A DNA stretch of 39,570 bases from a virus. Within the stretch, counting starts at the first letter, position 1; every line of letters starts with the position of its first letter. The DNA lies in IMG/VR virus record IMGVR_UViG_3300017971_000140. One strand, 5' to 3'. The position numbers were made by a program, and so were the translations under genes. The notes under the pieces are model-generated. The model had not been told where the DNA came from, ran no database searches, and saw only the letters and a list, made by a program, of their open reading frames with translations. Positions 9,748-39,570 of the stretch are shown here, in pieces.

Positions 9748-10953
9748 TTAACTAGTTGCTAGGTTGTGGATTTGTCCCTGGAACGCTGGCTTAATAACGT
9801 TCTGAAGGTATCCGCCGTAACGAGCTTCGTATCCGTCGCTGTCAGCCTGACGAAGAAGGACTGTTCCATCATCGTCAAACCAGCCGAAACCTGGTCGGTG
9901 CATCATTTCTATGAAGTTGTCGTTCAACAACCAAACGTCATCATCAGCACAGAATCGGCTAATTACCATTGGTATACGTGCAGGTCCAGCCTGTAGATCA
10001 ACAGCTTTGAAACCGATGCGGCCAACAAGCTCTTTATCCCTAGGAGTGACTTCCATGTACTTTACGTCTTCCAAGAGGTTAGCGATCTTAACATACTGTG
10101 TGTAAGAAGTGATACATAGGTTAGGGTATTTACCACACTTCTTATGGATCTGAAGGACAGTGTCGTTTAGGATATCCTGTGAAATTGCGGCTCCACCAGC
10201 GTCTTTACGGTAAGATCTCCAGCGTCTTTCAGCTGCTAGGTCGATGCCGTACTTAGTTCCTGTGGCTGTACCAACTGTTCCTTCAAGACCTTCAGGATCA
10301 TTGTCCTTAGAACCTTGCATGTAAATAACGCTGGTCTCTCCGGCTGAGATTGTCTGAGAACCGCTGATGAGAACGAGGTTAATAACCTTAGTAGAAGGCT
10401 CAACACTTGTGATCTCGAAGAGGTCAGTTCCAGAACCGACGTTTACATAGTCGTCTTCTTCTAGGTTAGCTTCCTTCCAAGTAGCGTCACTGATAGTAAC
10501 AACATAAGGAGAGCCAACAGTACCAGAACCAGAAGCTCCGCTAGTCATTGTACCAAGAGCGGCTGTACCATCACTGAAAAGGATACGTTCCATGTTACGT
10601 GCGTAAGATTCAACCGTGTTCTTGATTGATTCCTGAAGCAAGCGAACGAATGCACCTTTGTCGTCTTTAGAAGCCATCATGGACTCACGGTCGATGTTTA
10701 GTCGAGCGTAGACTTTCTTAGGTGTTACAGTCATCTGGAGGTAAGACTTGGTGTTAGCAGTTGGTAAAGAACCTGAACCTACAGAACCACCGAAACCTTT
10801 AGGCATCGTTGTCTTTAGGTCAGAACCTGTGAAGTTGAAATTCTTCTTTACTCGTGAGAGAAGAACGTTCTCTGAGTTATAGATTTTTTCCGAGAGTTTG
10901 CCGTAAACTGTTTTAAATAGTTCACTGACACTGGTTAGATCGTAATCGGCCAT
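9748..10953 (-). CDS. Major capsid protein
   Basis: 401 aa, AGGAGA upstream. Lies directly after the acidic scaffold gene and before a terminator. Sequence style fits HK97-fold coat proteins. Confidence 0.7.
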   Translation of the reverse strand: MADYDLTSVSELFKTVYGKLSEKIYNSENVLLSRVKKNFNFTGSDLKTTMPKGFGGSVGSGSLPTANTKSYLQMTVTPKKVYARLNIDRESMMASKDDKGAFVRLLQESIKNTVESYARNMERILFSDGTAALGTMTSGASGSGTVGSPYVVTISDATWKEANLEEDDYVNVGSGTDLFEITSVEPSTKVINLVLISGSQTISAGETSVIYMQGSKDNDPEGLEGTVGTATGTKYGIDLAAERRWRSYRKDAGGAAISQDILNDTVLQIHKKCGKYPNLCITSYTQYVKIANLLEDVKYMEVTPRDKELVGRIGFKAVDLQAGPARIPMVISRFCADDDVWLLNDNFIEMMHRPGFGWFDDDGTVLLRQADSDGYEARYGGYLQNVIKPAFQGQIHNLATS

Positions 10954-17177: not shown

Positions 17178-17214
17178 CTTACTCTTCTATGTAGGAAGGC
17201 CATATATGTGTTAC
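17178..17214 (-). promoter_or_regulatory. Late-promoter-like bipartite motif, copy E (GTAACAC-N14-TACATAGAAGAGTAAG)
   Basis: 16/16 box, ending 22 nt before ATG 17155. The upstream gene's TAA is embedded in GTAACAC. Confidence 0.65.
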
Positions 17215-17777
17215 ATACAACTAGAGCAATCTATAGAACCGGACGATGGAGCCGTGGACGATGCTTTATGCCAGACAAACCCTTTAGCCGAGGTGTCGCC
17301 GCGCTCTATGGCGTTTAGGTTATGATTCCTTCCTGGAGGAAACCACTCTTCTAAAGACAGTAAAGACGTGTGGATTGTTGTACCGTTAAAAGAAATGTCT
17401 ATGGGCTGATTAGTCCCGTTGTGAATATGGGCGTATGCGGCACCTGCAACAGCGTTTTGTTGTATCGGTGTTACAATCTCGAAAGTGTCGGCTGCGGTCG
17501 GTGCTCCACTAAGGGCAACTGAAAGAGTGATGGTGTCGGTGGTGACACTGGCTACCTCTCTGCCTTCTCCGTCGTAAGTACCGCTAGACATTATGATCTG
17601 ATCACCAGCAGAAGCAACATGTCCTGTGGCGTTGATTACCGTGGCGGTAGAGGCTGCTTCCACAGCGTCTTGAACAACCCATGTACCCATCTTGGTGAAG
17701 TTGTCGGCGACCGCGACCGCAGGGCTACTTCTATTAGCGTTCCAAATCGGATCTCTTGCATTAAATTCATTAGCCAT
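17211..17777 (-). CDS. Beta-rich Ala/Thr/Ser-rich protein, function unknown (possible virion surface protein)
   Basis: 188 aa, AGGAGA upstream. Confidence 0.4.
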   Translation of the reverse strand: MANEFNARDPIWNANRSSPAVAVADNFTKMGTWVVQDAVEAASTATVINATGHVASAGDQIIMSSGTYDGEGREVASVTTDTITLSVALSGAPTAADTFEIVTPIQQNAVAGAAYAHIHNGTNQPIDISFNGTTIHTSLLSLEEWFPPGRNHNLNAIERGDTSAKGFVWHKASSTAPSSGSIDCSSCM

Positions 17778-17797
17778 TTTTTATTCTCCTTTTTTGT

Positions 17798-18580
17798 TTA
17801 GAAATGATCTTCTAAGGTAAGATCGGTAGTATTAATGCTGTCTGATGTACCTAGATATCCAGTGTACACAACCGACGCTTCTCCTGCTGCACCAGATAGC
17901 TTAGTAACCTCTAGTACAAGGTCTGTAGCTGGGGGGAACTGTAGGAAAGGTCGTGGGTTCAGGCTTACCCCTGGTGATGGAGATATGAAAACTGTCTCTG
18001 TTCTCCATAAGCCGCCGTTTAAGAAGGGGTTAGATATCTTTATCCTTGCGCGTATGTCCCTACCAGTCTCAGCCATAAAGACGGGTTCGGAGACGAATAA
18101 CCAATAGTTGCCTGGTACTGTGTAGTTACCGTTCTGAGAGGAATTGTCTCCTATTGGCATACATGCTTGTACATCGCCGGACATTGAAAGATCTATCTGT
18201 CCAACGTTTGCGCCGTTTGATCCGGCTGTTAAAACTTCAATGCGTGTTACTCTCCAAAACGTTTTCAAGCCAAGCGCTGGGGTTGTACCTGTGAGGGTTA
18301 CAGTCTCGGTTTGTCTTAGGTAGTTAGTGTCCAAACCGTAAACTTGGATGGTGTGCGCTCCGATGCCAGCGACTGCGTCTGCCGCAGAGGTACTTACTAC
18401 TGATACAACAGAGGGTACAGAAGGGAATACTTGTATACCGCCGGGTGTCCATACGTGGGTTGGGTCTGTGCCTACTACTGGGTTGTAGCCTGAGCGAAAG
18501 AATGGTATAGCTTCTTGCGACTGAAGCTCGTGGATTTCATTGATATATCCTATATCGTGATAAAAACTGTGGGAAGACAT
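17798..18580 (-). CDS. Beta-rich protein, function unknown (possible virion surface protein)
   Basis: 260 aa, first gene after late motif copy F. Confidence 0.4.
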   Translation of the reverse strand: MSSHSFYHDIGYINEIHELQSQEAIPFFRSGYNPVVGTDPTHVWTPGGIQVFPSVPSVVSVVSTSAADAVAGIGAHTIQVYGLDTNYLRQTETVTLTGTTPALGLKTFWRVTRIEVLTAGSNGANVGQIDLSMSGDVQACMPIGDNSSQNGNYTVPGNYWLFVSEPVFMAETGRDIRARIKISNPFLNGGLWRTETVFISPSPGVSLNPRPFLQFPPATDLVLEVTKLSGAAGEASVVYTGYLGTSDSINTTDLTLEDHF

Positions 18581-18649: not shown

Positions 18650-19888
18650 TCAAAAAACAAGAAGTCCTTCGATAAATGCTTTAAGATACTCTATTCGCAG
18701 GATTATAGAGTCAGTGGGGAATTCTCCAGTGTAAAGGGTGCGTGATAGGTAGACGTTGTAGTAAACTTCTAGGAATGGGGTATAGAGTGGGGATTTTCTT
18801 AGGTCTCCGTAATCGATCTCGCACAAGTCTTTGTGCATCTGCGCCAAGCGTTTTATAAAGGCGTCGGATTCGTCGAGCTTTGCTGGGTTGAGCTTCCGGA
18901 TAGTGCCGCTTGGCTCTAAGTTGGCCGTATCTGGACACCACTTGGCCGTATTCGGGATATTTCGGCCATTTTTGGCTAGATTTTTGACCGAAAACGACGA
19001 TTCTTTAGCTAAAAATCCAAGTGACTCGGCTTCATTAGCCCAGATGGCTTGTCGTGGATTGTCAATCGCTGATTCGAAGCCTAGGGATTGCGGATAAACA
19101 CCGCCGTCTGCTGTTGGGTTGAGATCCACACCTAGGAGGAGGAATTCTTTTACCTTAAGCCGTTGAGCTAAGCGGAAAGAGAAGGTGGAGACACCGATAT
19201 TCCCTTCGTGTAAGGTTTCGGAACCGGGTTCTAGGTAATCAGCAAAGGGGAAAGTAGATAGGCCAGTTGTTAAAGCTACCGGGCCACGCCAGTTCGCTAA
19301 GAGTTTGGGGTTTACGCCTGAGCCTGCTAGTAGGATTGTGGACTTTGCAAAGGATTCTGGGACATCACCGCGAGAGGCTACGCTTGGGTTGGGGTCGCAG
19401 ACAAGACAAAGATCGGGCGACAGGCCGCGATCGGCAAAAGCTTTAATGGCAGAGCCACCAGCGACGACACGAGCATACCCAGTGTTGAGGCAGAATTCCA
19501 CGAAGTCCCAAGACTCATAGAGCGAGGGGCCTGCGCCGCAGAATAACAACCGTTGTGTTGAGCCAGCAAGTTGATCGAGGAGGGAGCGGAAAGAGCGCCC
19601 GTCTGTGGGGGAGAAAGTCTTGTTGGTGAGGTAGTTGGCAAGGAAGGGGGAGACGTTGGCGCTGAGGTGAGAGACGCAGAGTTGAGAGCGGAGGATTGTT
19701 TCGAACTTCTTTTTGAGGCGATTGGGTGCATCCAGGGTGAAAGGGCGGGGACTGTACGCAAGTCCTTGAGTGAGAAAGTTGAACTGTTCGGGGTTAAGAG
19801 TGAGTGAAGCCAAAGGGGTTTCTACAGAGATTTTGTTGTTCTTTAGTTGGCGTAATTTAATCGGGACTGGTTTAAATTTGATGTGCAT
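18650..19888 (-). CDS. Maf-like / DUF115 (MptE-like fold) putative nonulosonic-acid transferase
   Basis: LLFCGAGPSL...ARVVAGGSAIKAFADRGLSPDLCLVCDPNP...LLLGVDL matches the core pattern of motility-accessory-factor DUF115 proteins. GGGAGG upstream. Confidence 0.55.
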   Translation of the reverse strand: MHIKFKPVPIKLRQLKNNKISVETPLASLTLNPEQFNFLTQGLAYSPRPFTLDAPNRLKKKFETILRSQLCVSHLSANVSPFLANYLTNKTFSPTDGRSFRSLLDQLAGSTQRLLFCGAGPSLYESWDFVEFCLNTGYARVVAGGSAIKAFADRGLSPDLCLVCDPNPSVASRGDVPESFAKSTILLAGSGVNPKLLANWRGPVALTTGLSTFPFADYLEPGSETLHEGNIGVSTFSFRLAQRLKVKEFLLLGVDLNPTADGGVYPQSLGFESAIDNPRQAIWANEAESLGFLAKESSFSVKNLAKNGRNIPNTAKWCPDTANLEPSGTIRKLNPAKLDESDAFIKRLAQMHKDLCEIDYGDLRKSPLYTPFLEVYYNVYLSRTLYTGEFPTDSIILRIEYLKAFIEGLLVF

Positions 19889-19916
19889 GGAAAGAGTCCT
19901 CCCTCTTTGATATGCG

Positions 19917-20297
19917 TTACTTCTTCTTTTTTCTGAGTTTGCGGACTTCTGCTTTGAGGTCTGCGAGTTCTTCTTGCTTGTGGAGCATGTCCCAGTTGTC
20001 GCCGAGTGAAGCTTCCATGCGGTTGACGTAGGTTTGGATTTCCTCGGTGAGGCTCATGAGATGAAGTTGGTCTCGGGGTGAAACGTCACACTTCTGGAAT
20101 ACGATATCGTGGAAGGTGCGCAATTCTTCGAGGGCTGAACAAACATAACGGTTGGGCATATTAAACCTATGAATAAGGGTTGATTCCTCCACTCTTTTTA
20201 TGTACCGGGGGTGATATTTTGTCGCGTCGAGTAGGCAAAAAAGGTCACATATTTGTAGGTAACGGTGTATGTCGATGAGTTTCGGGGAAAGAGTCAA
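19917..20297 (-). CDS. Hypothetical protein with a C-terminal coiled coil and Lys tail; start uncertain
   Basis: 126-codon ORF from TTG 20297 with no SD. The first ATG is at 20159, also without an SD. Confidence 0.35.
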   Translation of the reverse strand: MTLSPKLIDIHRYLQICDLFCLLDATKYHPRYIKRVEESTLIHRFNMPNRYVCSALEELRTFHDIVFQKCDVSPRDQLHLMSLTEEIQTYVNRMEASLGDNWDMLHKQEELADLKAEVRKLRKKKK

Positions 20298-21097
20298 AAC
20301 GTGTATGGAGTGTAACCTGGAAATAAAGGCGCAAAAATAACTTCTAGGTGCATTTCTAGGTGCGCCTGTGGAATTAGCGGAAAGTGCTCTCCCCTAAGGG
20401 GTTGCTCGTTGAAAACCAAAAAATTTAGCTCAGCAACGTATAGATTTACACCACCCCCCTTCAGGGGTTTTTCTAAAATCGCCTTTTTCTAGAGCGCATA
20501 CTGAGGCTTAGCGACTTGGGATTGTATGGTTGATTCGAAGGCAACATAACATGTGTTATCGGACCATGTATGTTGTTTATTTCTTTTGGGTGTATACCCC
20601 TATCAAGGAATGACCCCTAGTAGCGTCGGGGGTGTTCGCATTACAGCGGGGGAGGAATGGTACACGTTGGCTAGAGGCGTTATGCTCGTGGTGGCGCTTA
20701 GAACAAGCCGTGGGAGTTAGGTACTACAATGTAGTACTTCAAGGCTGGGGAAGTAGACGATGAGGTTGGAGTCGTGGGAGTAGTTGGACAGAGTATTGAT
20801 TCCTTCTTGGTGTATCATGTACACAAAAGCGTTGTTTTCTATGCACGACGGTGGGATGAGTCCACAAAATGATGATTATTGTGCCTTTTACCCTGTAATT
20901 AGTGACAACTTCATGGTCGTTGACTTGATCGCCGACCAAGTGGGGGCACTTCTCTCACTACGTGCGAGTGGGCACTGTCCTTGGGAAGCTAGGAAAGAGC
21001 CTCTAATTGACCCTGACGTAAGCTAACGCCCCAGGTTGTTAACCTGAGGCGATGTGGGGCGATTACTCCTTGTGGTATAGTTTCTTGTGCGCGTCCT
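20298..21097. other. 800-bp ORF-poor gap with local hairpins and short direct repeats
   Basis: Contains only two mutually overlapping 66-80 aa ORFs, neither with an SD. The rest of the genome is tightly packed. Confidence 0.7.
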
Positions 21098-21826
21098 CTA
21101 ACTTCTTACTTCCTCCATTGCGTAGGTTAGTTCGCGCCAGGTGTAACCGATTGGGTCTGTCATCCGGCGAAGGGCACGTCGCAGTTGCACGTAGTCCTCT
21201 GGTGTGTCAAGTGTACACCTGAGGTTAGAGTAGTCACCGCCGCAGGGTGTCACGTATGAGACGTTGTGTGAATTCTTAACTAAGTCCCGAGGATAGCCTT
21301 GATAGGTGCGGATCATCGGAGTGACGTGCTCCCTTGCTGCGCAAGGTTCATCGATGATGTGGTCATCGGCTTCTACCAACGCGCTAAATGGAAAGAGCTC
21401 GAAATCAAAGCCTTTGGGGAATGTTCGCGCCGAGGTGTTGGACAAGTACCTTGAGTTTGTGCGGTGAAACGTAAGGATTGCATCGTCTATCAGCTGAGGG
21501 TCAGTGAAAGGACAATCCGCTGTAATGCGAATGATGCAAGATTCTTCGTGAGCACCGAAACGCTTGGCTGCTTGAACGTAGCGTGTTAGTACGTCTTCTT
21601 CGGGGCCTCGATGGGAGCAGGTGGCCCAACGAAGGCAGAGGTCAGCGATGGGGTCATCGAGTGGTGAGTCAGTGGTGGCGACAACGACACGGTCAACGTG
21701 CTTGCACTGGGCTACTCGTTGGAGTAGGTGCTCCAACACTGTAGTGCCATCAGTTGCTAGTGGATAGAGCACCTTGCCTGGGAGTCGGGTCGACCCCATG
21801 CGGGCTTGGATTATTAGTAGGTTCAT
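21098..21826 (-). CDS. SpsF-type cytidylyltransferase (CTP_transf_3 family; nonulosonate/acylneuraminate-type sugar activation)
   Basis: N-terminal LLIIQARMGSTRLPGKVL, then VVVATTD, RGPEEDVLTRY, IIRITADCPFTDP, REHVTP and CTLDTPEDY. AGGAGG upstream, ATGA overlap with the preceding gene. Confidence 0.8.
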   Translation of the reverse strand: MNLLIIQARMGSTRLPGKVLYPLATDGTTVLEHLLQRVAQCKHVDRVVVATTDSPLDDPIADLCLRWATCSHRGPEEDVLTRYVQAAKRFGAHEESCIIRITADCPFTDPQLIDDAILTFHRTNSRYLSNTSARTFPKGFDFELFPFSALVEADDHIIDEPCAAREHVTPMIRTYQGYPRDLVKNSHNVSYVTPCGGDYSNLRCTLDTPEDYVQLRRALRRMTDPIGYTWRELTYAMEEVRS

Positions 21827-22137
21827 GCTTCACCTCCTGCTTCGCAGCTTAGTTGTTGAGTCTTAGGGTTTAGGTAGAAAGAGCGGTCCTTCTCTGCTAG
21901 GTTATACACCTTGAGGTAAAGCTCCTTCGTGGCTTGAGCGCAGTAGAAGCGGCGGCCAAGTGATTCAGCTGCATGCGGAGTGAGCACGTTGAGTTCGCTG
22001 CGTTCCGCGGAGAGAGCTGGCAGTGTTTCCGGGTCGGCTATGGAAAGCCAGGTTATTGCTTGCGCATAGCAGTGACCAAAATCTTCGGCCATTGCTATGA
22101 TGCGGCGGTGCTTGGTGTCAACTATTGCTTTGGTCAT
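21823..22137 (-). CDS. Hypothetical protein
   Basis: 104 aa, AAGGAG upstream, TAATG overlap. Confidence 0.5.
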   Translation of the reverse strand: MTKAIVDTKHRRIIAMAEDFGHCYAQAITWLSIADPETLPALSAERSELNVLTPHAAESLGRRFYCAQATKELYLKVYNLAEKDRSFYLNPKTQQLSCEAGGEA

Positions 22138-22586
22138 TAGTCTTCTCCTTGGTTGTATTCACTTGGTTTTACTACCCCACCGCACTGGGCTTCTGTGATT
22201 CGATTGAGGCCGGCTTCCAGAGCGTCGACGTTACGTTGGTATTCGTCGGCCCTTCGAGTAGCTTTGACTTTGGCTATCTCCTCTGGTGTGAGGGGAAAGA
22301 GCGTCTCCCCGTTGGCGGTGGCTGGGTCTACTGCTGTGAAGTCGAGAGGTAAAGCCTTTAAACCTTTTGTTAGCTGACATATAGCGTCGAGTGCATCGTC
22401 GTCCTGGAGTTCATCTTGCAACACCATATCGTGTTGTGCTCCTTGGGTTTTGGGTTCTAGGTTGTCAGGTGTTACGTACTTGAAGTTAAGACTTGCGTTG
22501 AGTAGCCCAGCTTTGATCTTTTCGTCAGTGACTTTTCTTGATACGTGCTTCCAAATCGGATGGATGAATAGGGTGTAGTCTTTCAT
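22137..22586 (-). CDS. Hypothetical protein
   Basis: 149 aa from ATG 22586 (AAGGAGG upstream). The track's longer start would lie upstream of the promoter. Confidence 0.5.
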   Translation of the reverse strand: MKDYTLFIHPIWKHVSRKVTDEKIKAGLLNASLNFKYVTPDNLEPKTQGAQHDMVLQDELQDDDALDAICQLTKGLKALPLDFTAVDPATANGETLFPLTPEEIAKVKATRRADEYQRNVDALEAGLNRITEAQCGGVVKPSEYNQGED

Positions 22587-22620: not shown

Positions 22621-22649
22621 ATTGTATCAGTTGTCGGAATTATTGTCAA
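22621..22649 (-). promoter_or_regulatory. Sigma70-type promoter TTGACA-17-TACAAT with a CCGACAA spacer box
   Basis: Minus strand reads gtccTTGACAataattCCGACAActgaTACAATg. Confidence 0.65.
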
Positions 22650-23834: not shown

Positions 23835-24151
23835 CACAAGAGCACGTATGGGCCTTATATAAGGGGGTGAAACCCTTCAAAACCGAGGGGTGGTGTGCAT
23901 ACACTCAGATTGACGGTGTACAAGCCTTGTTATATACAGGTGATACGGCCGAGGAATGCGCCAGTGCTTACGATGAATATATCACACTTCTGAAGCCTAA
24001 GAAATGGCAGTCAAATCTTAATAAAGTTACTGGCAAACACTGCCCTCTAAAACTTTGGAGCGGGTTGGCGAGACTAGCCTCCCCGAAAGTTATGAGGGTA
24101 GCGAGTATATTAGAGGAGCACTTTTTTAACCAACAAGGAGGTAACCAATGA
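23831..24151 (+). CDS. Early protein with an AP2-like DNA-binding domain (candidate regulator)
   Basis: KGVKPFKTEGWCAYTQIDGVQALLYTGDTAEECASAYDEYI fits the AP2 pattern GV..(K)W.A.I...G....G.F.T.EEAA.AYD. Confidence 0.45.
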   Translation: MTQEHVWALYKGVKPFKTEGWCAYTQIDGVQALLYTGDTAEECASAYDEYITLLKPKKWQSNLNKVTGKHCPLKLWSGLARLASPKVMRVASILEEHFFNQQGGNQ

Positions 24152-24687
24152 GACTTTTTACCCTATTAACCATAGCCCTTACCCTATTAATAGGTGAAGT
24201 TGAGGCTAACAAGAAGTTTTTCCGCATCTATGATCTGATGGAAGTTAAGTATAGTGAGCATACATCCCTTAAACCTTTAGATGGGATTGGAAATATAGCG
24301 GCTGTATACAATAGTTGGCACGATGATATTAAGATTCTGAAGCAGGGGTTGTTCCAGTCTGACCGCGACTATCTACAAACAATACTGCACGAGTTAGCAC
24401 ACTGGGCAGGTGGAAGGGAATATCGAGCGCACCGCCACATTGACGATACTTATATTGAGGAAGTGATCGCAGAAAACGTGGCTCTGAAGCTATCCACAAA
24501 GCTATTTGGTGGACGTTATGCGGACTCTGTCGAAAATGTACTTCATTATTTGACGAGTCATCCTACTTACCGACCTCTGAACGATCCTGAGTTGGCGCTT
24601 ATAGACGCTTGCGTAAGAAACACTTATATGTTTTTGATAAAAGATTTAAAAAGGGTTGACGTAAATAACGAGCTTGGGTTAAGATAA
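24148..24687 (+). CDS. Zincin-like metallopeptidase domain protein (ArdC / PolyVal-type HExxH) with an N-terminal signal peptide or TM
   Basis: MRLFTLLTIALTLLIGEVEA, then ILHELAHWAGGREYR...YIEEVIAENVALKL. AAGGAGG upstream. Confidence 0.6.
   Translation: MRLFTLLTIALTLLIGEVEANKKFFRIYDLMEVKYSEHTSLKPLDGIGNIAAVYNSWHDDIKILKQGLFQSDRDYLQTILHELAHWAGGREYRAHRHIDDTYIEEVIAENVALKLSTKLFGGRYADSVENVLHYLTSHPTYRPLNDPELALIDACVRNTYMFLIKDLKRVDVNNELGLR
24656..24685 (+). promoter_or_regulatory. Possible sigma70-type promoter TTGACG-18-TAAGAT
   Basis: Lies in the last codons of the preceding gene, 32 nt before ATG 24718. Confidence 0.35.
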
Positions 24688-24717: not shown

Positions 24718-25167
24718 ATGGACTACGATTTATTGGACAGAGTGGCTAAGAGGATGAGCGTTAGAATAGAATTCGCTGATACAGGGATAGAGCACTGCCA
24801 CGGTATTTGTGAGTACTGGGATAGCAAGGTTATCATAGACAGCTCTTTACCAGAAGAGCATAGGGCGCATGTGTTGTTGCATGAATTGGCACACGTCACA
24901 GGATCCAAGGAGAGATTGGACAGGGAGACATTGACCTCTTATGGTTCAAACACTCTTTACGCTCTCGTTGAGGAGATGATAGCAGAATCAACCGCTGTGG
25001 CCATACTAAAGAGTTTCGGACTCAACCCACGTATGCGGCTAATGGATCGCTTAGGCGCTGAGTGTGATGCTCAGGGGATAGAGTGGGAGCACGACATAGA
25101 ACCAGAGGTAGAGAGAATAATTGATTACTTAAGTAAACATTTCAAGGAGGTATACGAATGCCAGTAA
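24718..25167 (+). CDS. Zincin-like metallopeptidase domain protein (ArdC / PolyVal-type), cytoplasmic paralogue
   Basis: LLHELAHVTGSKERLDR...YALVEEMIAESTAVAIL. GAGGAGG upstream. Confidence 0.6.
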   Translation: MDYDLLDRVAKRMSVRIEFADTGIEHCHGICEYWDSKVIIDSSLPEEHRAHVLLHELAHVTGSKERLDRETLTSYGSNTLYALVEEMIAESTAVAILKSFGLNPRMRLMDRLGAECDAQGIEWEHDIEPEVERIIDYLSKHFKEVYECQ

Positions 25168-36801: not shown

Positions 36802-37857
36802 ATGAAGAATATTCTAATGTTATCTGGAAAGGCGGGGTCTGGTAAAGACACCTTTGCAGGTATGCTACAAGGTGATTGGCAAAGAGTGGCCTTTGGTGAT
36901 TTTATAAAGGAAGAAGCCAGTAAATTCGTTGGACTGCCTTTGCGGTATTTCCATGATGTTGAGTTAAAGGACTCTGTCATATGGATTGGGTGGAAGTATC
37001 AAACACCTAGAGACGTATTGCTTTTCATGCATGATTTTTATAGTAAGATGGATCCCAAACGCTGGGTCCGTAAAGTTGTTGAGACTATACAAGCTTCACA
37101 AGGAGAGTATTTTGTAATAACAGACTGGAGATTCCCAAATGAAATGGAAGCTATCAAGGAGGCTTTTTCGAACGATTGTGACGAAGGGGCGAAAGTTACT
37201 ACGGTGCGTGTTGTGGGGAACAGTACTCTGCGGTCATCCCACGAATCCGAGTGTGCGCTTGATAGCCATAATTTTGACCACCTTATTATTAACAGAGGAA
37301 CTCTACAGTTTCTTTCAAACAAAGCGGAAGCGATGAGTGTAATGCTTGGACAGAGTGTTGCAATTGGTTCTTTGTATACTAAGTTACTGCCTAGGATCAA
37401 AGGCGTGTGTAGTAGGAAATGGTTCTACCAGGTTGATATCGATGACCAGGCACAGGAGTTGTTCTACTACGCCCTCAAACAAATGAGACGTAAATATGAT
37501 TTTAGTTGTACGCCTTGGACGTTCATGTACTCAGTCATCGGATTTGAGATTCAGAATCGTGTTAGGAAGGCTCAGACGTATAGCAAACATGTGGTATTAG
37601 GTTCTGGGTTGGAAGATCTGAAAGCTTTGGAGGATGTGGAAAGTGCTCCTCTCCTGCGAAAAAGACTCCTCGACGCTGTGGCTACGCTGTCGGAATTTGA
37701 TCAGAAGTTGTTTACTCTACGGCATGATGGATGGAAGCATAAGGAATTAGCCGCCGAGCTAGACATCAACGAAAATTACTCTCGACAACGCTTGTATTTT
37801 ATCCACAGGAAACTTAGGGTGTTACTCCATGATCTATACTCAGATATCGTCAAGTAA
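36802..37857 (+). CDS. Fusion ORF: dNMP-kinase-like P-loop domain (about aa 1-185) plus an ECF-type sigma factor (about aa 195-351)
   Basis: Kinase part: GKAGSGKDT, ITDWRFPNE, SSHESE. Sigma region 2-like: DDQAQELFYYALKQMRRKYD...IGFEIQNRVRK. Region 4 HTH: LSEFDQKLFTLRHDGWKHKELAAELDINENYSRQRLYFIHRKLR. Confidence 0.65.
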   Translation: MKNILMLSGKAGSGKDTFAGMLQGDWQRVAFGDFIKEEASKFVGLPLRYFHDVELKDSVIWIGWKYQTPRDVLLFMHDFYSKMDPKRWVRKVVETIQASQGEYFVITDWRFPNEMEAIKEAFSNDCDEGAKVTTVRVVGNSTLRSSHESECALDSHNFDHLIINRGTLQFLSNKAEAMSVMLGQSVAIGSLYTKLLPRIKGVCSRKWFYQVDIDDQAQELFYYALKQMRRKYDFSCTPWTFMYSVIGFEIQNRVRKAQTYSKHVVLGSGLEDLKALEDVESAPLLRKRLLDAVATLSEFDQKLFTLRHDGWKHKELAAELDINENYSRQRLYFIHRKLRVLLHDLYSDIVK

Positions 37858-37971: not shown

Positions 37972-39570
37972 TTATAGCCCTTGAAGTATTTCGGCTTCCA
38001 TTGCTTTACGCTGAGCTTCCAAGTCCCTGAGAACTTGTCGCTTGTCTCTCTGAGGAATCGACTCGGGGTTAATTTTTCCTGTTGTCTGAAGCTGGTTTAT
38101 CTCCCTAAACTTTTGAGCATGGGAGAGAGTGTTGTTGTTCATTACTCGGCCTGCATGAGCTTTGCGATCGGCTTCATCGTTGATGATGTTGTCTTCGTCG
38201 AGAGATTGGTACAGCTGACGTGCTATGACCGCTCCTTGTTGTTCGGCCTTGCGTAAGGCTCCTCCAAGGGCTGCACCACCTCTTACTACTCCTTCGCTTA
38301 CTCCTCCTACTACTCGGCCAGCACCACCCGTAATGGCAGAGACTACACCTTCTTGTCGTGTGAGGTTTGCGATTTGCTCGGATAGTGGGCTTGCTAGGGC
38401 TGCACCTTCCTCGAATTCGGCAATCGCTGCTGCGTCTGCTAAAGTGTCTCTTACTACTACTGTGTCTCCGAAAGCGTCGTTGAGTTCTGCAAAGTCTTTG
38501 GTGCCGTGTTTGTCTAAGGTAGCGCGTAACTCTGGAGACTTAAGAGCAGCATCATCGATCTTGTCTTCTAGAGCTTCCTTGATTTGTGTGCGAACACCCA
38601 TGAGCTGCTTCATCTGTGATTTCTTTACAGCCTTGAGGGTTGAACCCGTCTTAATGAGTCCGTCTAGTTCTTGTTTGAGTCCAAAAAGGTCTGAGGCTTT
38701 AAACTGCTGATTCTGTAGGAGATCTTCGACGTTGCCTACCGCTGTGATGAATTCGTCGTTGGTTGAGCCTTTCTTCACTGCTTTAGTGACTTCGCGAAGC
38801 TTAGCGATGCCTAGTTGATTGGAACCAAAATCAACGCCTGCTTCATCGGCGGCTTTGGTGATGTTTTCTATTGATTCTCCTAAGAGGTTAGATTCTTTCC
38901 TGACAGCCTTGAACATCTCGCGTTTGTCCATGGACTGGAATGCTGCTCGCTCTGTAGGTAAGACCCCTCTGTTTTGTAGACCTTCTACGCCTTTTACTAG
39001 GTTCTTATTCGTACGTTGGTCAAAGGCTTTCTTGGTACTAGCTTTGGCGGCATTACGTAGATCAGCGGCTATAGCCTTGGGTTTGATTACGTTGGCTGCA
39101 ATGTCTTGGGCTTTCTGAGGAAGGACCCTTCTACCCACTGCACCGAGACTCTTGGAAAGTGCTTCTCCTCCTAGTCCTGTGACTGCTCCGATCGCGGTGC
39201 CAATGCCCACGTCTCCGGCGAACTCTTTTATTTCTCCTCGTGTTAGGTCTGCTTCTGATTTACCCGCTGCTGCTAGTCCACCTAGGCCTGCACCTACTTT
39301 GAGGACTCCGCCTAAACCTTTGGTGGCTAGGCCAGCTCCTCCGGTTGCTACTCCAGATGCTAAAGCGCCTCCGATTTCTCCGGCTGTAAAAGTCTTAGGG
39401 AATGCCTCTTGTGCGGCGGCATCTGCTGCGCGAGCCTCTTCTACTTGGCGTTGGTATTCTCCTACGAAGTCGCCGAATTCGAGTTTGCCGGAAGCGAAGT
39501 TAGCTACGGTATCGGAAAGGCCTGTTACTGCTGCGCCGATGGCTCCCGAGGCTTCGTCGGCAAATCCGAA
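37972..39570 (-). CDS. C-terminal part of the 580-aa Gly/Ala-rich internal virion protein; the ORF is open to the window end and continues at 123..267
   Basis: No stop between 39210 and 39570 in frame. The track start at 39210 is an internal GTG. Contains glycine-zipper-like segments GIGTAIGAVTGLGG. Confidence 0.7.
   Translation of the reverse strand, partial: FGFADEASGAIGAAVTGLSDTVANFASGKLEFGDFVGEYQRQVEEARAADAAAQEAFPKTFTAGEIGGALASGVATGGAGLATKGLGGVLKVGAGLGGLAAAGKSEADLTRGEIKEFAGDVGIGTAIGAVTGLGGEALSKSLGAVGRRVLPQKAQDIAANVIKPKAIAADLRNAAKASTKKAFDQRTNKNLVKGVEGLQNRGVLPTERAAFQSMDKREMFKAVRKESNLLGESIENITKAADEAGVDFGSNQLGIAKLREVTKAVKKGSTNDEFITAVGNVEDLLQNQQFKASDLFGLKQELDGLIKTGSTLKAVKKSQMKQLMGVRTQIKEALEDKIDDAALKSPELRATLDKHGTKDFAELNDAFGDTVVVRDTLADAAAIAEFEEGAALASPLSEQIANLTRQEGVVSAITGGAGRVVGGVSEGVVRGGAALGGALRKAEQQGAVIARQLYQSLDEDNIINDEADRKAHAGRVMNNNTLSHAQKFREINQLQTTGKINPESIPQRDKRQVLRDLEAQRKAMEAEILQGL
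39448..39570. repeat. Second copy of the 123-bp terminal overlap (equals 1-123)
   Basis: Identical sequence gcgttggtattctcc...ggcaaatccgaa at both ends. Confidence 0.95.

Follow-up and report, generated by a model that had tools for sequence, protein, structure and literature searches.

Whether a bacterial virus can activate a sialic-acid-like sugar and attach it to a protein, and to which protein, is the question raised by the viral DNA analysed here. The IMG/VR record IMGVR_UViG_3300017971_000140 (39,570 nucleotides (nt); this whole stretch is called the window below) encodes a 412-amino-acid relative of the Maf flagellin glycosyltransferases, which we call the short Maf-like protein, and a 242-amino-acid SpsF-type cytidylyltransferase. 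The original prediction, made from the letters alone, took the two genes for an activate-and-transfer pair for a nonulosonic sugar drawn from a host pathway. Our analysis points to a phage system for attaching acidic sugars that is undescribed so far. The boldest reading compatible with the data, to which we give a probability of roughly one in three, is that the phage short Maf family coats virion proteins with acidic ulosonic sugars, mostly 3-deoxy-D-manno-oct-2-ulosonic acid (Kdo) and, in this phage, a sugar of the pseudaminic or legionaminic acid type, and that interchangeable phage-encoded synthetases of cytidine monophosphate (CMP)-activated sugars supply or boost the donors. Both open reading frames (ORFs) are present on the minus strand (Table 1), together with the GAGPSL, PD..LVCD and GVDL motifs and the N-terminal sequence on which that prediction drew, and both family assignments held in hidden Markov model (HMM) searches, with scores well above the cut-offs.

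The 412-amino-acid protein matches PF01973 (MptE-like/DUF115/Maf_flag10) with 69.8 bits (E 3e-19; cut-off 34.6), its residues 95-257 aligning to positions 12-167 of the 171-position profile, and its core motifs read FCGAGPSL (residues 116-123), PDLCLVCD (158-165) and GVDL (253-256). A small N-terminal beta domain, a central Maf_flag10-type domain (about residues 95-305) and a C-terminal helical domain make up its layout; PF01973 is the sole Pfam match, and the Maf_flag10_N domain (PF20157) is absent. When its AlphaFold2 model, built with 13 homologues (predicted local distance difference test score (pLDDT) 86.5; predicted template modelling score 0.85), was compared with the PDB by Foldseek, the top match was 5MU5, the Maf of Magnetospirillum magneticum (E 3.7e-9; template modelling score 0.50), followed by the archaeal pterin pyrophosphokinase MptE (8SD5; E 1.6e-4), SteA and the GT42 sialyltransferase CstII (E 7e-3). 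The sequence profile of the family likewise aligns 5MU5 over residues 100-330 (230 residues; E 5e-9), at an identity of the phage protein to 5MU5 of about 14%, and aligns MptE 8SD5 over residues 85-160 only. Mutagenesis has shown that E324 and D415 are essential in M. magneticum Maf, and that a conserved serine (S334 in Clostridium botulinum Maf) is essential in the C. botulinum and Geobacillus kaustophilus enzymes (bioRxiv 10.1101/2020.06.03.131540). In the HMM alignment, E324, D415 and T394 of 5MU5 fall on D165, D255 and S234 of the phage protein, and among 47 family members the first position is aspartate in all 47, the second aspartate or glutamate in all 47, and the third serine or threonine in 44. 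From profiles and model together, it is well supported that the 412-amino-acid protein is, as the original prediction had supposed, a glycosyltransferase relative; it resembles Maf more closely than it does the MptE kinase and has kept the Maf catalytic positions.

The resemblance to Maf has clear limits. The phage protein shares the central PF01973/Maf_flag10 domain and the catalytic positions of the M. magneticum, C. botulinum and G. kaustophilus enzymes, and bacterial Maf proteins, which are soluble and cytoplasmic, use CMP-ulosonate donors and tolerate Kdo, are encoded beside SpsF-type cytidylyltransferases. In contrast, it has 412 amino acids where Maf proteins have about 600-1000, its N-terminal beta domain and C-terminal helices occur in the phage family only, and its gene neighbours are packaging genes rather than flagellar genes. 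Because two defining Maf features, the N-terminal domain and the flagellar context, are missing, we class it as an architectural and contextual variant and not as a Maf orthologue; flagellin cannot be assumed to be its acceptor. An HMMER search of 1.84 billion representative sequences returned about 50 full-length short relatives (380-520 amino acids; E 1e-34 to 1e-83; representatives at 50% identity), along with thousands of classical Maf-like proteins whose match was confined to the central part (profile positions of about 55-355). As near full-length matches occur only inside the short phage family, the terminal regions outside the central domain are family-specific. All short members that could be placed lie on metagenomic contigs of 2-40 kb, and three short Maf proteins searched by tblastn had no match in 50,697 GenBank phage records. 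Pattern scans found two loci in IMG/VR and four in JGI metagenomes, and scans of GTDB genomes with the family patterns gave no confirmed relative and no prophage or host clue; the broad 47-sequence family alignment was too divergent for such scans. A library of predicted viral structures contained other uncharacterised "MptE-like" proteins, from uncultured phages and giant viruses.

The 242-amino-acid protein, whose N-terminus reads MNLLIIQARMGSTRLPGKVL, matches PF02348 (CTP_transf_3) with 92.1 bits (E 6e-26; cut-off 22.6). About 8000 cellular homologues share 40-48% identity with it, many of them named SpsF (E 1e-42), and its best PDB match is the cytidylyltransferase 6OEW (E 1e-29), whereas KdsB structures match with E 1e-6 and over the N-terminal half only. 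Its N-terminal I-Q-A-R-x-G-S-T-R-L-P-G-K motif and its D-C-P motif are those of 6OEW and of the SpsF-like proteins of two other lineages (L011 and L012), and the former differs from the KdsB-type IPAR motif. No NCBIfam equivalog cut-off was reached, either by the KdsB models (33-61 bits, against 155-281 required) or by the PseF model TIGR03584 (15.5 bits, against 205.7). The nearest homologues with usable context, three of three, occupy the cytidylyltransferase slot of pseudaminic acid (Pse) clusters, in the order PseB-like dehydratase, PseC-like aminotransferase, SpsF homologue, PseG/PseH-like protein and NeuB-type synthase (PseI); in Sinobaca sp. H24 the cluster is flanked by flagellin and a 595-amino-acid classical Maf, and by flaG-fliD-fliS-fliT. 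In Bacillus subtilis, SpsF is needed for the transfer of legionaminic acid to the spore surface and is dispensable for its synthesis (PMC7439481). Judged from homology, motifs and cluster contexts, the protein groups with the SpsF-type enzymes of pseudaminic and legionaminic acid clusters and not with KdsB, IspD or NeuA-type PseF, in line with the original assignment. It resembles B. subtilis SpsF and 6OEW in overall identity and in its N-terminal IIQARMGSTRLPGK and DCP motifs; unlike cellular spsF genes, its gene stands outside any synthase, aminotransferase and dehydratase cluster, in a cassette with two ORFs of no assigned function. It is an ordinary SpsF-type member displaced into a phage.

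Do the two genes belong together? That the transferase uses a CMP-activated ulosonic acid is supported most strongly by its repeated pairing with non-orthologous cytidylyltransferases. A PF02348 gene lies near the Maf-like gene in 6 of the 13 distinct short Maf lineages examined, the window included, that is, in 5 of the 12 others. The cytidylyltransferase gene lies directly downstream of the Maf-like gene and overlaps its end in two lineages (L016 and L038), lies 1 kb downstream in a third (L018) and, in two more (L010 and L039), stands beside a gene for a KdsA-like Kdo-8-phosphate synthase about 3 kb from the Maf-like gene. Three of these five partners score as KdsB-type on NCBIfam models, and all five, which share an N-terminal motif of the IPAR/IPCR type, have at most a distant relationship to the SpsF-type enzyme of the window. 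Such genes are rare in phages: among the same 50,697 GenBank records, tblastn gave no match to the SpsF-like protein and matches in six records to a KdsB-like protein. The recurrence of partners that are not orthologous also suggests that phages gain by supplying the activation step, and a functional coupling of transferase and cytidylyltransferase is likely.

The adjacent KdsA- and KdsB-like genes occur in two unrelated short Maf phages (L010, 4959-6732; L039, 3294-4768). The KdsA-like protein of L010 reaches 228 bits, where the cut-off is 242. The KdsA proteins of the two phages share 50% identity with each other and about 30% with the KdsA of cyanophage S-SCSM2R. Their presence in two unrelated phages suggests that a phage-borne Kdo mini-pathway circulates among uncultured phages. 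Two hypothetical genes beside kdsB in S-SCSM2R were checked as possible short Maf genes; they do not encode DUF115 proteins.

We propose a two-step phage module for attaching an acidic ulosonic sugar, with activation by the SpsF-type enzyme and transfer by the short Maf, a model whose chances we consider to be about even. In the first step, the SpsF-type enzyme, expressed from its separate cassette and probably by the host RNA polymerase, would convert a host-made nonulosonic acid and cytidine triphosphate into the CMP-sugar; that this acid would be of the pseudaminic or legionaminic type is suggested by the gene contexts of the nearest SpsF homologues. In the second step, the short Maf, presumably a soluble cytoplasmic enzyme with a Maf-type active site formed by D165, S234 and D255, would transfer the sugar from the CMP-ulosonate to serine or threonine residues of a protein, in the cytoplasm and late in infection. 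The first and last 123 nt of the window are identical (1-123 and 39448-39570), which indicates a circularly closed assembly and a genome of 39,447 bp. Gene content was scanned with Pfam, PHROG and NCBIfam models in 38 further ORFs of at least 87 amino acids, shorter ORFs lying outside the scan. As the original prediction had noted for biosynthesis genes, no sugar-metabolism gene was found besides the pair, and no synthase, aminotransferase or dehydratase of a nonulosonic acid pathway; because the genome is complete, this absence is valid for all of its larger ORFs.

The donor may differ between this phage and its relatives. The presence of KdsB, and sometimes KdsA, in distant relatives makes CMP-Kdo their most likely donor, and the usual donor across the family is probably this eight-carbon sugar nucleotide and not a nonulosonic acid. 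Kdo is available in any Gram-negative host. The nonulosonic donor that had been proposed therefore stands as plausible for this phage, given the Pse-cluster homologues of its SpsF-type enzyme, but probably not as the norm for the family, given the KdsA and KdsB partners. For the window itself, a nonulosonic acid is our tentative choice, at somewhat less than even odds, with Kdo a serious competitor. Maf enzymes accept CMP-Kdo and CMP-N-acetylneuraminic acid besides their native donors (PMC11339370). In the close relatives, which have no cytidylyltransferase gene of their own near the Maf-like gene, the enzyme would draw on the CMP-sugar pool of the host.

As acceptors, we prefer virion proteins that the phage would produce in the same period, and for the clade of the window our leading guess would be the two serine/threonine-rich proteins p260 and p188, encoded at 17211-18580. 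They were originally put forward as neighbouring beta-rich proteins; their genes do lie directly downstream on the same strand, whereas only a low-confidence model speaks for their being beta-rich (the single-sequence model of p260 has a pLDDT of 33 and is unusable), and PDB profile searches with p260 and p188 gave nothing significant. By tblastn, p260 matches the 'virion protein' SSCSM1_31 of cyanophage S-SCSM1, encoded beside tail-fibre genes, and its homologue in phage DSL-LC05 lies between portal and tailspike. The family of p260, phrog_8198, is spread over T4-like cyanophages (S-SCSM1 and S-SKS1), the freshwater podophage DSL-LC05 and a spindle-shaped archaeal virus of Nitrosopumilaceae (ORF33). 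The module of p188 follows the pattern T-x-T...ATAH...GD-x-I...SG...E-x-R-E-V...ITL...ALSGAP...TFE, and it recurs three to four times in a 420-amino-acid protein of L002 (11306-12568), which also replaces the 260-amino-acid gene. In the three close lineages (L001; L002/L003/L009/L015; L007/L008), whose large terminase (TerL) is about 80% and whose small terminase (TerS) about 70% identical to that of the window, the Maf-like gene is kept at about 50% identity and immediately precedes the p260/p188-TerS-TerL-portal-capsid genes; the Maf-like protein, p260 and p188 have diverged in step, sharing 40-51% identity with their counterparts, below the value for TerL. Outside these relatives, the Maf-like gene also comes just before terminase and head genes in L005, L037, L038 and L039, and in L010 it follows a gene for a prohead protease.

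Several observations weigh against this picture. With regard to the pair, no PF02348 gene lies in the available DNA (up to 10 kb on either side of the Maf-like gene) of the three closest lineages, and 7 of the 13 lineages lack a cytidylyltransferase gene in the available DNA. The Maf-like and SpsF-like genes are not a conserved unit. In the window they are 1.2 kb apart with a non-coding region between them and appear to belong to different transcription units: the SpsF cassette looks like a recently acquired accessory cassette that ends a leftward early unit, and the Maf-like gene, past an 800-nt non-coding region, heads the late block. The functional link of the activate-and-transfer pair as first predicted is retained, through the recurrent PF02348 partners; co-occurrence in related phages was found across the wider family and fails in the nearest relatives. 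With regard to the donor, the partners elsewhere are KdsB-type, and the Maf-like enzyme might here use host CMP-Kdo without the product of the SpsF-like enzyme. With regard to the acceptor, the L002 lineage lacks p260, and the profiles of p260 and p188 are confined to the close clade, with no match in any other short Maf phage, so that these proteins cannot be a family-wide acceptor; two lineages (L040 and L017) carry the Maf-like gene among replication genes, and the boundaries of gene modules commonly collect unrelated accessory genes.

One alternative is that the two genes are independent, which we consider unlikely, though it is the best placed of the rivals. The short Maf would then be a core gene that works on host CMP-Kdo, and the SpsF-like gene a separate moron or auxiliary metabolic gene that boosts or diverts the CMP-nonulosonate of the host, for example to change a surface glycan or flagellin and so block superinfection. 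In keeping with this, the syntenic region of L001, L002/L009 and L007/L008 contains no cytidylyltransferase gene and no counterpart of ORF149 or orf104, and the three genes form a cassette of their own with overlapping stops and starts, ORFs of no assigned function that are translationally coupled to the SpsF-like gene, and a promoter-like site. This site is a consensus match only, and such sites are no more frequent in the region than in shuffled sequence. The cassette is comparatively rich in GC, and the SpsF-like gene has the highest GC content in the genome (0.534, against a mean of 0.472) and also the highest GC content at third codon positions. The partners in the rest of the family belong to a different subfamily, KdsB, and kdsA and kdsB, first reported in a cyanophage in late 2025, have been read as modifiers of the host cell wall (PMC12801897). 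On the other hand, PF02348 genes are extremely rare in phages, this one lies 1.2 kb from a Maf-like gene, and coincidence is unlikely when 5 of 12 other lineages show such a neighbour; in bacteria, moreover, the SpsF-type gene and Maf share one glycosylation island.

Alternatively, the acceptor might be a host protein, either flagellin or another protein such as a target in defence or takeover, glycosylated during infection. Characterised Maf enzymes are flagellin glycosyltransferases only (PMC11339370; bioRxiv 10.1101/2020.06.03.131540), the fast evolution of the Maf-like protein (about 50% identity between relatives, where TerL keeps about 80%) fits an arms-race target, and the contexts of the gene vary across the family, including the replication modules of L040 and L017. 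We nevertheless regard a host acceptor as improbable. The phage protein lacks the PF20157 domain and its terminal regions are specific to the short phage family; the protein reaches 13 bits on the PseD flagellin-modification model, which requires 670; profile scans revealed no flagellar or flagellin-related gene in the complete phage genome; and in most lineages the gene heads a structural and packaging block.

Still less probable is DNA hypermodification, in which the Maf-like enzyme would place an ulosonic acid on a hydroxymethylated base. Kdo-modified cytosine made by a phage glycosyltransferase, a GT-B enzyme that puts Kdo on 5-hydroxymethylcytosine, has been reported (bioRxiv 10.1101/2023.12.21.572611), the genome of the window encodes a deoxynucleoside monophosphate (dNMP)-kinase domain, and some family members lie among DNA-metabolism genes. 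However, the known DNA glycosyltransferases have GT-A or GT-B folds (bioRxiv 10.1101/2023.12.21.572611), the nearest fold relatives of the short Maf act on proteins or glycans, and the family, with a median isoelectric point of 6.05, is not consistently basic. We rank this possibility low for want of precursor genes: among its ORFs of at least 87 amino acids, the complete genome has none for a thymidylate-synthase-like hydroxymethylase, TET/5mYOX or a C5-methyltransferase. Weakest of all, and scarcely credible, is that the 412-amino-acid protein is an MptE-like pyrophosphokinase or another nucleotide-dependent DUF115-fold enzyme and no glycosyltransferase, for although the Pfam family takes its name from the archaeal kinase MptE and 8SD5 is the second-best structural match, just 76 N-terminal residues align with MptE in sequence, conservation extends to the catalytic Asp, Ser and Asp positions of Maf, and the recurrent partner is a CMP-sugar synthetase, with no pterin or folate gene in the genome; the automatic label "6-hydroxymethylpterin diphosphokinase MptE-like" on these phage genes is probably misleading.

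Table 1. Features at the Maf-like/SpsF-like locus of the window (S+T, share of serine plus threonine; aa, amino acids).
Feature	Position	Strand	Basis or remark
p188, 188-aa Ser/Thr-rich protein of a module of about 60 aa	17211..17777	minus	in all 4 close-clade lineages; S+T 20.7%
p260, 260 aa, virion-protein family phrog_8198	17798..18580	minus	phrog_8198 E 3e-14; S+T 19%
Short Maf-like (DUF115/PF01973) glycosyltransferase, 412 aa	18650..19888	minus	PF01973, AlphaFold2 model, Foldseek, catalytic positions
orf126, small conserved protein (C-terminal 70 aa conserved)	19917..20297	minus	tblastn 62-63% to L001 11312-11524 and L007 6203-6409
Conserved non-coding element	20322..20533	.	blastn 77-83% identity to L001, L007 and L008
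SpsF-type CMP-sugar synthetase (cytidylyltransferase), 242 aa, last of three-gene cassette	21098..21826	minus	PF02348, 6OEW, homologue contexts
orf104, no assigned function	21823..22137	minus	stop overlaps SpsF-like start (ATGA); no Pfam match, no counterpart in relatives
ORF149, 149 aa, first cassette gene	22137..22586	minus	Shine-Dalgarno sequence and ATG at 22586; ENA gene call of 149 aa
Sigma70-type promoter-like site, TTGACA-17 nt including TG-TACAAT	22621..22649	minus	near-consensus, about 35 nt upstream of first cassette start

Both genes of the pair are preceded by a strong Shine-Dalgarno sequence, and the mechanical ORF list extends ORF149 to 22649. Between the cassette and orf126 lies an 800-nt gap without an ORF (20298-21097), in which we found no tRNA, no Rfam family and no ORF of more than 80 amino acids. 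The conserved element within it, whose conservation exceeds that of the flanking proteins, is found in the relatives 150-230 nt ahead of the Maf-like gene. It contains a tandem GCACCTAGAA repeat (20342-20363) and an invariant AGAAAAACCCC...GGGG hairpin, which on the plus strand takes the form of an intrinsic terminator (20453-20478); RNAalifold predicted one hairpin in the element, with no covariation support, and its conserved motifs have no second copy in the genome. One possibility is that the element serves the phage's own sigma factor as a late promoter or operator; another is that it encodes a small plus-strand RNA. The ORF-free stretch before the Maf-like gene measures 1.4 kb in L007 (3557-4969), 800 nt in the window and about 450 nt in L001 and L002, the non-coding region varying widely in size about a conserved core. 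Whereas the window has the gene for orf126 upstream of the Maf-like gene, the relatives have its homologue immediately downstream, and this switch of order suggests a local rearrangement at the site of the SpsF cassette and the long gap.

The phage itself is remote from all sequenced isolates, as its locus has no match at the nucleotide level among GenBank phages and its TerL reaches just 23% identity in its best matches there, to Pseudomonas phages. Its genome carries genes for an SU10-type major capsid protein (9748-10953) and adaptor, a portal, a large terminase, a scaffolding protein and an internal virion protein, the structural genes running on the minus strand through the circle junction (267-1892 on to 37972-39210). 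For replication it encodes a VapE-type primase, a family A DNA polymerase, a PD-(D/E)XK nuclease and a Gp2.5-like single-strand-binding protein. On the plus strand, one 351-amino-acid ORF (36802-37857) joins an N-terminal dNMP-kinase/phosphomevalonate-kinase-like domain to sigma-70 regions 2 and 4, an unusual fusion of a nucleotide kinase and a phage sigma factor, and two neighbouring genes (24148-24687 and 24718-25167) each encode a zincin-like MPTase-PolyVal metallopeptidase domain; the relatives have one or two copies of this gene at the start of the rightward early region.

Precedents for parts of the proposed system exist. Cytoplasmic glycosyltransferases of mycobacteriophages reportedly decorate virion proteins (Freeman and colleagues, 2023, cited in PMC12801897), which sets a precedent for the class of acceptor proposed here. 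That system differs in its enzyme families, sugars and hosts and is not known to involve ulosonic acids or a phage CMP-sugar synthetase. The kdsA and kdsB genes of S-SCSM2R and the Kdo-installing phage DNA glycosyltransferases likewise represent phage enzymes that make or use CMP-Kdo; in contrast, S-SCSM2R has no short Maf gene beside kdsA and kdsB, and the DNA enzymes are of the GT-B fold and are accompanied by hydroxymethyl-base synthesis genes, which this phage lacks. In agreement with the original prediction, we found in the literature no described Maf/DUF115 enzyme of a phage and no transfer of nonulosonic acid by a phage; an apparent "DUF115" match in a paper on BREX proved to be DUF1156 and is irrelevant.

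Were the boldest reading true, bacterial viruses would gain their first ulosonic-acid glycosylation system, and the Maf-type enzymes their first member with an acceptor other than flagellin. Maf enzymes have already been explored for the neo-sialylation of recombinant proteins; a compact phage Maf with a different acceptor would broaden the set of substrates of the Maf family and could serve glyco-engineering. Kdo or sialic-acid-like sugars on virions would, if present, be a new phage surface chemistry, with possible effects on host range, particle stability, adsorption to mucus or particles, and immune recognition. In addition, phage-encoded kdsA and kdsB may serve the phage's own glycosylation instead of the lipopolysaccharide of the host.

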